This document shows, piece by piece, positions 21,635 through 22,553 of a stretch of 64,000 nt of DNA. A model generated the notes under the pieces. It made no database searches and had not been told where the DNA came from. It saw only the letters and a list, made by a program, of their open reading frames with translations. A program made the translations under genes and the position numbers. This stretch comes from Escherichia coli (GTDB lineage: Bacteria; Pseudomonadota; Gammaproteobacteria; Enterobacterales; Enterobacteriaceae), in NCBI RefSeq assembly GCF_030013595.1, contig NZ_CP122768.1; one strand, 5' to 3'. Numbering within the stretch: position 1 is the stretch's first letter; every line of letters starts with the position of its first letter.

Positions 21635-22553
21635 GAATCTTGACCTTTTTTGCTGTTATCGCCACTCCCTGCCGTGGAAGTCAGCTTAGAACAATGTACT
21701 CCCCCAGGACGGCGTTTTGAAGGTCTGCAGAATAAGATTTTGCCAGAGGGGAAGACTCGATTGTGCTGTTAATAACTTAATAATGGCAAAATAATGAGGT
21801 ATATATGCTTAGTAATTAATGTTATGTAGTGAATTGTTCTGATTCTTAATTGTGAGTGTGGTTTTTTTATCTGTAAGATAATTGTTTGAAAATGCCTCGT
21901 TTAAGAATTCACTAATGAATCGTGATGATGATATTTCCGCATTACGGAGAGTTTAACAGCGTGATGATTTCCGAGGTGTCGTAATGGGTGCAAGGTGTGA
22001 AACTATTGTTAAGCGGGATTAATGAATGAGGATGATGCTAATTAATTATTATTTAATATTCAAAAAGGTTTTGTTGTGCTTATTAATAATAGAAGATTAC
22101 TTTGCCTAACATAACATAACTTTGCATCAGATAATTCGCAATGACCCTTATAAATAAAAGGTTTTTGGGGTAAAATGCTCGCATAAATGACGGATCCCTG
22201 CTCTTGATGCCGCCTCACCATTGCTGTTTGTACGTGTTCGCGTATGACCAGCGATGCTGCACGAGAGTGGAACAAGGACTCACATTTACATTTATACAAA
22301 CACGCGCATGTCATAAATACAAAAGAGTGAGTAACTTAATAGATATGCGATTCCTGAAGATATATTCTGTGATCTACTTCAGGCATTATAACGGAACAAT
22401 GTGAGTCGCTTTTTTAGTGCAACTCATATGCATTTTTACTTTCGTCCGGGTTCCGGATGAAACTGCCAGGGAGGCACATTACAAATGGAATTGCTTGTTT
22501 GTGTGTGCACAGCATTAACCAGCTCAGTATGAGCCGCCAGTAAGTGATAATAT

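Follow-up and report, generated by a model that had tools for sequence, protein, structure and literature searches.

The AT-rich interval between alaA and lrhA of Escherichia coli as a probable compound regulatory region without a gene of its own

The mRNAs of the global regulators rpoS, csgD and flhDC carry leaders of several hundred nucleotides that are bound by Hfq and targeted by multiple small RNAs (sRNAs). The lrhA mRNA has a leader of this type, and its sRNAs act at or upstream of the ribosome-binding site (RBS), as they do in that group. ArcZ and RprA are common to the rpoS and lrhA leaders, and ArcZ and McaS are common to the flhDC and lrhA leaders. The rpoS leader is activated by sRNAs that open an inhibitory hairpin; in contrast, all of the effects reported for lrhA are repressive and no conserved inhibitory structure was found in its leader.

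The lrhA orthologues hexA, pecT and pigU (Photorhabdus, Xenorhabdus, Dickeya, Serratia) belong to the same gene pair and have the same long spacer of the alaA-lrhA type. ArcZ represses the orthologues through the leader, at -50 to -42 in hexA and at -84 to -58 in pecT. Transposon insertions in the alaA-pigU spacer of Serratia raise PigU, just as lrhA expression in E. coli goes up with insertions in its spacer. However, the pairing of UhpU with lrhA has been reported as specific to Escherichia. Autoregulation is positive for E. coli LrhA but negative in Pantoea. The genera of hexA, pecT and pigU fall outside the 78-species sample used below.

The spacer itself has also been described. Shimada et al. 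(2014) reported the "920 bp-long lrhA-alaA" as a long multi-input spacer with several RNA-polymerase SELEX peaks, and grouped it with csgD-csgB and nanC-fimB as long type-A spacers with several such peaks and many factor sites. The csgD-csgB and nanC-fimB spacers carry an H-NS mark in that study, whereas lrhA-alaA is without one. The lrhA-alaA spacer is also unlike the other two in that alaA has a compact housekeeping-type promoter at its edge.

The window analyzed here is a 64-kb stretch of E. coli DNA. The alaA-lrhA gap occupies 21635-22553 (919 bp) and contains no gene, with the alaA start codon ending at 21634 and the lrhA ATG beginning at 22554. The GC content of the gap is 38.1%, compared with 51.5% for the window. 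It falls to 31.0% in the core (21780-22150), is 29-36% over approximately 500 bp and rises to 42.3% in the last 371 nt. The earlier note on this DNA, made from the sequence alone, had described a 919-bp AT-rich divergent gap that is especially AT-rich at 21780-22150; the coordinates, length and GC content all agree with that description. The note had placed the gap among the longest non-coding stretches, and it is the longest of the gaps between annotated genes in the window, followed by gaps of 629 (lrhA-nuoA), 390, 337 and 307 bp. This ranking was taken from the gene table of the colinear strain 1190, whose gene coordinates are exactly those of the window. In the record of strain 1190 the locus tags skip from CNQ48_RS08335 (alaA) to RS08345 (lrhA), and it seems that the annotation once had a feature RS08340 in the spacer that was later withdrawn. 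The K-12 MG1655 spacer is identical in length to the gap, and its RefSeq record is empty there.

The region is single-copy and chromosomal in 5425 of 5426 complete E. coli genomes, with no plasmid copies. Approximately 42 of the 5425 genomes are without a single full-length copy of the spacer. Two other parts of the window were also noted. The lrhA-nuoA gap (23493-24121, 629 bp), the second-longest of the window, is AT-rich too (GC 0.35-0.45), and no terminator downstream of lrhA turned up in a pattern scan. At its right end (approximately 62900-64000), the window contains a truncated helix-turn-helix pseudogene, the tnpA of ISEc46 (IS200/IS605) and the start of a TnpB/InsQ gene.

The gap is best explained as a compound regulatory region without a gene of its own, which combines the alaA promoter and leader, spacer control DNA, and the lrhA promoter with its sRNA-repressed leader (probability of about 0.88). 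For the transcription start sites (TSSs), Hfq binding, sRNA repression and the UhpU contact, the source is published experiments, which were matched here to the sequence. The roles assigned to the conserved upstream blocks and to the length constraint are putative. The content of the gap is already documented in the literature, and this is an ordinary known regulatory region; added here are a coordinate-level map in the present strain and a family-wide footprint of the constrained parts across 78 loci. The features are as follows.

20417-21634, minus strand: alaA.
21635-21686, minus strand: alaA 5' leader, 52 nt, from the mapped TSS (the A at 21686).
21664-21681, minus strand: 5' stem-loop of the alaA mRNA, from conservation and covariation.
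21693-21721, minus strand: alaA core promoter, from cross-species conservation and the mapped TSS.
21734-21742, minus strand: conserved block CAAAATCTT (written on the alaA strand), a phylogenetic footprint at about -48 to -56 from the alaA TSS.
21743-21994, no strand: AT-rich spacer, variable in sequence and kept in length (identity 0.35 against the four-fold baseline of 0.41).
21995-22074, no strand: distal AT-rich block (TGTGAA..ATTGTTAAG..ATTAATGA..AATTAATTATTATTTAATATT), -188 to -109 from the lrhA TSS, identity 0.58.
22128-22182, plus strand: lrhA promoter region, from the match of the string upstream of the TSS, identity 0.63.
22183-22553, plus strand: lrhA 5' leader, 371 nt, from the mapped TSS, the start of a lacZ fusion, Hfq and sRNAs.
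22460-22476, plus strand: candidate ArcZ site ACUGCCAGGGAGGCA (-94 to -78), the best local duplex with ArcZ UUUCCCUGGUG.
22507-22520, plus strand: conserved GCACAGCAUUAACC, from conservation and complementarity to a motif of RprA and McaS.
22526-22546, plus strand: UhpU pairing site adjoining the RBS, from a compensatory mutant and the predicted duplex, with core GCCGCCAGU at 22533-22541.
22554-23492, plus strand: lrhA.

Two transcription starts are listed in the gap in the genome-wide K-12 TSS table of Kim et al. (2012; PMC3415461, supplementary file 2). The lrhA TSS is at U00096.2 position 2405034, with a 371-nt UTR and 11 reads. The yfbQ (alaA) TSS is at U00096.2 position 2405531, with a 52-nt UTR and 231 reads. 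No third TSS is listed between nuoA and yfbR, whose entries flank these two in the sorted table. The 50-nt upstream strings of the table match the window and place the alaA TSS at 21686 and the lrhA TSS at 22183. The divergent alaA and lrhA promoters proposed in the earlier note are borne out by these starts, and the long lrhA leader that it expected is 371 nt when measured from 22183. For the gap, only the two mRNA starts appear in the published K-12 table, with no independent transcript start. The main interpretation of the note, two promoters and a long lrhA leader, is therefore supported by published data matched to the sequence.

The alaA promoter has a -35 element TTCAAA (21716-21721), a 17-nt spacer and a -10 element TACATT (21693-21698) that ends 7 nt upstream of the mapped TSS. 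Both hexamers are conserved across genera, while the sequence of the 17-nt spacer is variable, and the promoter motif is retained in 70 of the 78 loci. This promoter was predicted from cross-species conservation alone before the TSS table was used, and the table then confirmed the prediction, which shows that alaA has a sigma-70 promoter close to the gene. The alaA Shine-Dalgarno sequence AAAGG is approximately 10 nt upstream of the ATG. The conserved block CAAAATCTT farther upstream is a candidate activator, Lrp or UP-type site. The alaA promoter predicted from a pattern by Shimada et al. (2014), TTAAGA-17-TATAAC, matches K-12 at 21821-21849; its -10 in the present strain is CATAAC. That candidate was rejected, as the DNA there is not conserved and the mapped TSS is 135 bp farther downstream.

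The alaA mRNA opens with a small stem-loop of six pairs (ACUUCC/GGGAGU) and the loop ACGGCA. Across 58 distinct Enterobacteriaceae sequences, neither the loop nor the two C-G pairs that close it vary. Covariation is seen at the outer pair (AU/GC/GU), and the U.G wobble makes a valid pair only when read on the alaA sense strand. The covariation score is 0.208 compared with 0.170 in shuffles, and was reached by 1 of 500 shuffles. A loop this invariant suggests a specific partner. Over its full length, the alaA leader is no more stably folded than its shuffles (z = +1.15), so that a structured leader was rejected.

The lrhA promoter has a -35 element TTATAA (22148-22153), a 17-nt spacer and a -10 element TAAAAT (22171-22176), and the motif is retained in 62 of the 78 loci. 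An upstream element, CAGATAATTCGCA at 22128-22140, is also conserved at approximately -55 to -43 from the lrhA start.

The lrhA locus was compared among representatives of 80 Enterobacteriaceae species, and the 78 with alaA divergently upstream make up the sample. The neutral yardstick was the identity to E. coli at the four-fold-degenerate sites of alaA and lrhA, with a mean of 0.41. The alaA-lrhA spacer is long in all 78 species (764-1140 bp, median 943). The mean identity over the 78 species is listed below for each part of the gap.

21635-21734: alaA leader and promoter, identity 0.72.
21735-21994: variable spacer, identity 0.35, at or below the baseline.
21995-22074: AT-rich block, identity 0.58.
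22115-22182: lrhA promoter with the upstream CAGATAATTCGCA, identity 0.63.
22183-22474: distal leader, identity 0.34, at or below the baseline.
22475-22553: proximal leader, identity 0.68.

Four islands of conservation thus stand out in the gap: the alaA promoter with its leader, the AT block (-188 to -109), the promoter of lrhA and the final 80 nt of the lrhA leader. Both promoters are conserved across the sample, and covariation is limited to the alaA hairpin. One locus, in CACSKA010000019.1 (labelled Chryseobacterium sp. 18061), is a typical Enterobacteriaceae alaA-lrhA locus in which the first 150 aa of AlaA are 98.7% identical; this assembly is probably contaminated or mislabelled. The locus in NZ_JAATUR010000019.1, labelled E. 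coli SCPM-O-B-8794, has 67% identity to the window at the four-fold sites of alaA and lrhA, compared with 94% for K-12, and that strain may belong to a cryptic Escherichia lineage.

The present strain and K-12 differ at only 3 of 371 nt in the leader (0.8%), compared with 55 of 863 four-fold sites (6.4%; p = 3e-6). The rest of the gap has 24 differences in 548 positions. Constraint within E. coli thus extends over the entire leader, of which only the last 80 nt are shared across genera. The identity of 0.34 across genera in the distal 290 nt or so means that the function of the distal leader, if any, is lineage-specific. The constraint within the species fits a published account in which the UhpU-lrhA pairing originated within Escherichia. 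At 21811-21817, in the variable spacer, six of seven consecutive bases are unlike K-12 (AGTAATT instead of TACATGC), a clustered multi-base replacement.

The DNA between the divergent starts (21687-22182) is approximately 496 bp long and AT-rich, and it is kept in length more than in sequence. The two TSSs are 496 bp apart here, and the median across species is also 496 bp (IQR 490-499). The leader is more variable in length (IQR 382-437). For 21687-21994, the length here is 308 bp, compared with a median of 307 (IQR 303-311) in the 78 species. When measured between conserved anchor motifs only, and therefore independently of the alignment, the distance from the alaA -10 to the lrhA -35 has a median of 453 bp and is within 440-460 bp in 60 of 67 loci. 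The distance from TGTTAAG in the distal block to the lrhA -35 is 138-143 bp in 46 of 61 loci. The distal block (21995-22074) is a candidate upstream regulatory site. A direct repeat, TAATGAATnnnGATGATGnTAnTT, occurs at 21913-21936 and 22020-22043, with the copies 107 bp apart and the second one inside the distal block. These repeats may be paired factor sites.

Several factors have been placed on this DNA. OmpR has been found on the spacer by ChIP and CpxR on the spacer in O157:H7, and Kroner (2019), as cited in a later paper, places Lrp at the lrhA promoter. The binding of LrhA to its own promoter has direct evidence in Pantoea, where a 903-bp promoter fragment was used. The CpxR consensus GTAAA-N5-GTAAA had no match inside the gap at up to 2 mismatches, and no binding site of any of the named factors (OmpR, Lrp, CpxR, LrhA) was located in the gap sequence.

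The alternative that survives best is that the AT-rich core is mainly a silencing platform, on which H-NS or another nucleoid protein keeps lrhA off and which insertions disrupt. The GC content of 29-36% over approximately 500 bp, the AT-richness kept in all 78 species and the conserved length of the spacer are consistent with such a platform. Expression of lrhA in E. coli and of pigU in Serratia goes up when a transposon is inserted in the spacer, and a natural IS1 insertion at 22093-22101 is known in one E. coli strain. However, the insertion phenotype would be explained equally well by outward promoters of the transposon or by lost leader-mediated repression, and the genomic-SELEX table of Shimada et al. 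(2014) marks H-NS on many neighboring spacers but not on lrhA-alaA. Nucleoid-protein binding, which the earlier note had also proposed, is unproven because of this missing mark. Silencing as the main role of the core is therefore unlikely, though it keeps a real chance.

Two E. coli strains were found with IS1 in this spacer. Strain TA8571 has its copy between the distal block and the lrhA promoter, with a 9-bp target duplication (22093-22101) approximately 85 bp upstream of the lrhA TSS. In strain SCPM-O-B-12142 the IS1 is at approximately 21800 and is followed by elaD and rbn, with lrhA and the nuo operon deleted.

The spacer may also be read as a length-constrained architectural element, in which a nucleoprotein complex of wrapped or looped DNA, perhaps involving Lrp, would couple the alaA and lrhA promoters. 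The spacer stays AT-rich, and in 60 of 67 Enterobacteriaceae loci the promoters remain equally far apart to within about ±10 bp, even though approximately 250 bp of the sequence drifts at the neutral rate. This idea is speculative and should be given rather poor odds. If true, the complex would link the promoter of an amino-acid-metabolism gene with that of a motility regulator.

In the compound regulatory region favored here, the published evidence on the lrhA leader is consistent. Melamed et al. (2023) independently state a leader of 371 nt, and the primer of their lacZ fusion begins at 22183. Bilusic et al. (2014) found that RNA from the lrhA-alaA interval co-immunoprecipitates with Hfq as bands of 150 and 350 nt, initially named "ig-lrhA-alaA". 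They concluded that these bands belong to the 1.5-kb lrhA transcript, which accumulates without Hfq, and that lrhA mRNA is "virtually undetectable" in total RNA. In Lalaouna et al. (2018), an MS2-RprA pull-down enriched lrhA 744-fold and RprA induced the decay of lrhA mRNA. The RIL-seq data of Melamed et al. (2023) contain chimeras of the leader with UhpU, ArcZ, RprA and McaS. The lrhA-lacZ fusion was repressed by UhpU, ArcZ and RprA; McaS formed the most chimeras with the leader, yet had no effect on the fusion.

The UhpU pairing was proven by compensatory mutations (UhpU-M1/lrhA-M1) in Melamed et al. (2023). Comparison of the lrhA-M1 gBlock with the wild type gives a C to G change at 22538, position -16, within GCCGCCAGU. 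The UhpU sequence ACUGGUGAC opposite GCCGCCAGU has a predicted duplex energy of -15.9 kcal/mol. The contact is just upstream of the AAGUGA ribosome-binding region; therefore, UhpU acts by classical RBS occlusion.

The positions of the other sRNAs are less firm. ArcZ may pair through UUUCCCUGGUG at 22460-22476, where the energy of the predicted duplex is no better than in shuffled leaders. The CACAGC at 22508-22513 is nearly invariant and is complementary to GCUGUGUGU, a motif common to RprA and McaS, for which the predicted duplex energies at 22507-22520 are -13.7 and -18.0 kcal/mol, respectively. RprA and McaS are therefore putatively assigned to the GCACAGCAUUAACC site. Prediction with whole-molecule RNAduplex, and then with sliding 24-nt sRNA-leader windows, was not better than in shuffled leaders and missed the proven UhpU site. 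Because the duplex energies are no better than those of the shuffles, the sRNA positions other than that of UhpU are guesses.

The predicted fold of the whole leader is better than those of its dinucleotide shuffles (z = -2.38), a level equalled by 1 of 100 of them. In the proximal leader, RNAalifold predicts 0 pairs in a consensus structure. An anti-SD helix between 22490-22496 (AUUGCUU) and 22542-22548 (AAGUGAU) is pairable in 81% of cells, and both arms are conserved and nearly invariant; this candidate was rejected for lack of covariation support. A search of the gap for a riboswitch or other structured cis-regulatory RNA gave no covarying structure except the small alaA 5' hairpin.

A further role in trans is conceivable, with the leader or its Hfq-bound fragments serving as a sponge for sRNAs such as McaS and so titrating them. 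Melamed et al. (2023) suggested that the leader may inhibit McaS, given the numerous chimeras and the absence of repression of the fusion. Stable Hfq-bound leader fragments do exist, and the motif common to McaS and RprA is complementary to the conserved CACAGC. Against this, the lrhA mRNA is scarce (11 TSS reads compared with 231 for alaA), which makes the titration of an abundant sRNA unlikely. A sponge role in addition to repression of lrhA therefore seems improbable.

An independent sRNA gene with its own promoter and terminator hidden in the gap is highly unlikely. The Northern blots of Bilusic et al. (2014), with Hfq-bound RNAs of approximately 150 and 350 nt first filed as "ig-lrhA-alaA", and the leader fold with z = -2.38 both speak for such a gene. 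However, the same authors concluded that the short RNAs are lrhA leader fragments, and these are the only short RNAs reported from the gap. Only the two mRNA TSSs are listed for the gap in PMC3415461 (Kim et al., 2012). No terminator-like site was found in the gap on either strand. No Rfam family matched at E <= 1 in 21000-24300, apart from a chance match outside the gap. The K-12 RefSeq record includes recently named sRNAs such as uhpU, yet contains nothing in the alaA-lrhA spacer. A sigma-70 pattern scan of the gap gave two sites compared with 3.7 expected, and neither is a real promoter.

A small protein is the least probable of the alternatives: an 84-aa open reading frame (ORF; 22060-22314, minus strand), a 66-aa ORF (22204-22404, plus strand) and a 15-codon upstream ORF (uORF; MELLVCVCTALTSSV, 22485-22532) do exist, and the uORF recurs in Escherichia, Citrobacter and Salmonella within the conserved proximal leader, where it overlaps the conserved GGAAUUGCUU motif, but both longer ORFs are interrupted in every one of the 13 close relatives, K-12 itself has a stop codon within the 66-aa ORF, the 84-aa ORF is antisense to the lrhA promoter and leader with no mapped transcript start there, the uORF has its ATG in only 29 of 78 loci with unrelated peptides of 7-47 aa, which led to its rejection as a conserved uORF, and the K-12 annotation is empty there. 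Neither of the two longer ORFs, to which the earlier note had given a weak coding character, is intact in any of the 13 relatives. The smaller ORFs of the gap remain only in DNA whose conservation has another cause, and there were no Pfam or NCBIfam matches in the gap. The note had left room for a hidden sRNA or small protein, and this is now largely excluded, as the ORFs are unconserved and the gap has no further listed TSS, no terminator-like site and no Rfam match.

Taken as a compound regulatory region, the gap works as follows. A sigma-70 promoter near alaA starts the 52-nt leader at 21686, which opens with the small conserved stem-loop. The spacer of approximately 496 bp (21687-22182) would act as upstream control DNA, mainly for lrhA, and OmpR, Lrp, CpxR and LrhA have been placed on it in published work. 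The TTATAA-17-TAAAAT promoter starts the 371-nt leader at 22183, to which Hfq binds. UhpU (at C22538, adjoining the RBS), ArcZ and RprA pair with this leader, blocking translation and speeding up decay. LrhA is therefore kept low unless this repression is lifted.

LrhA stands above flhDC (motility), type 1 fimbriae, RprA and rpoS, and its orthologues HexA, PecT and PigU control virulence, antibiotic production and CRISPR-Cas. Given this reach, the spacer and leader decide when a whole lifestyle program is switched on or off, a role already recognized in the literature.
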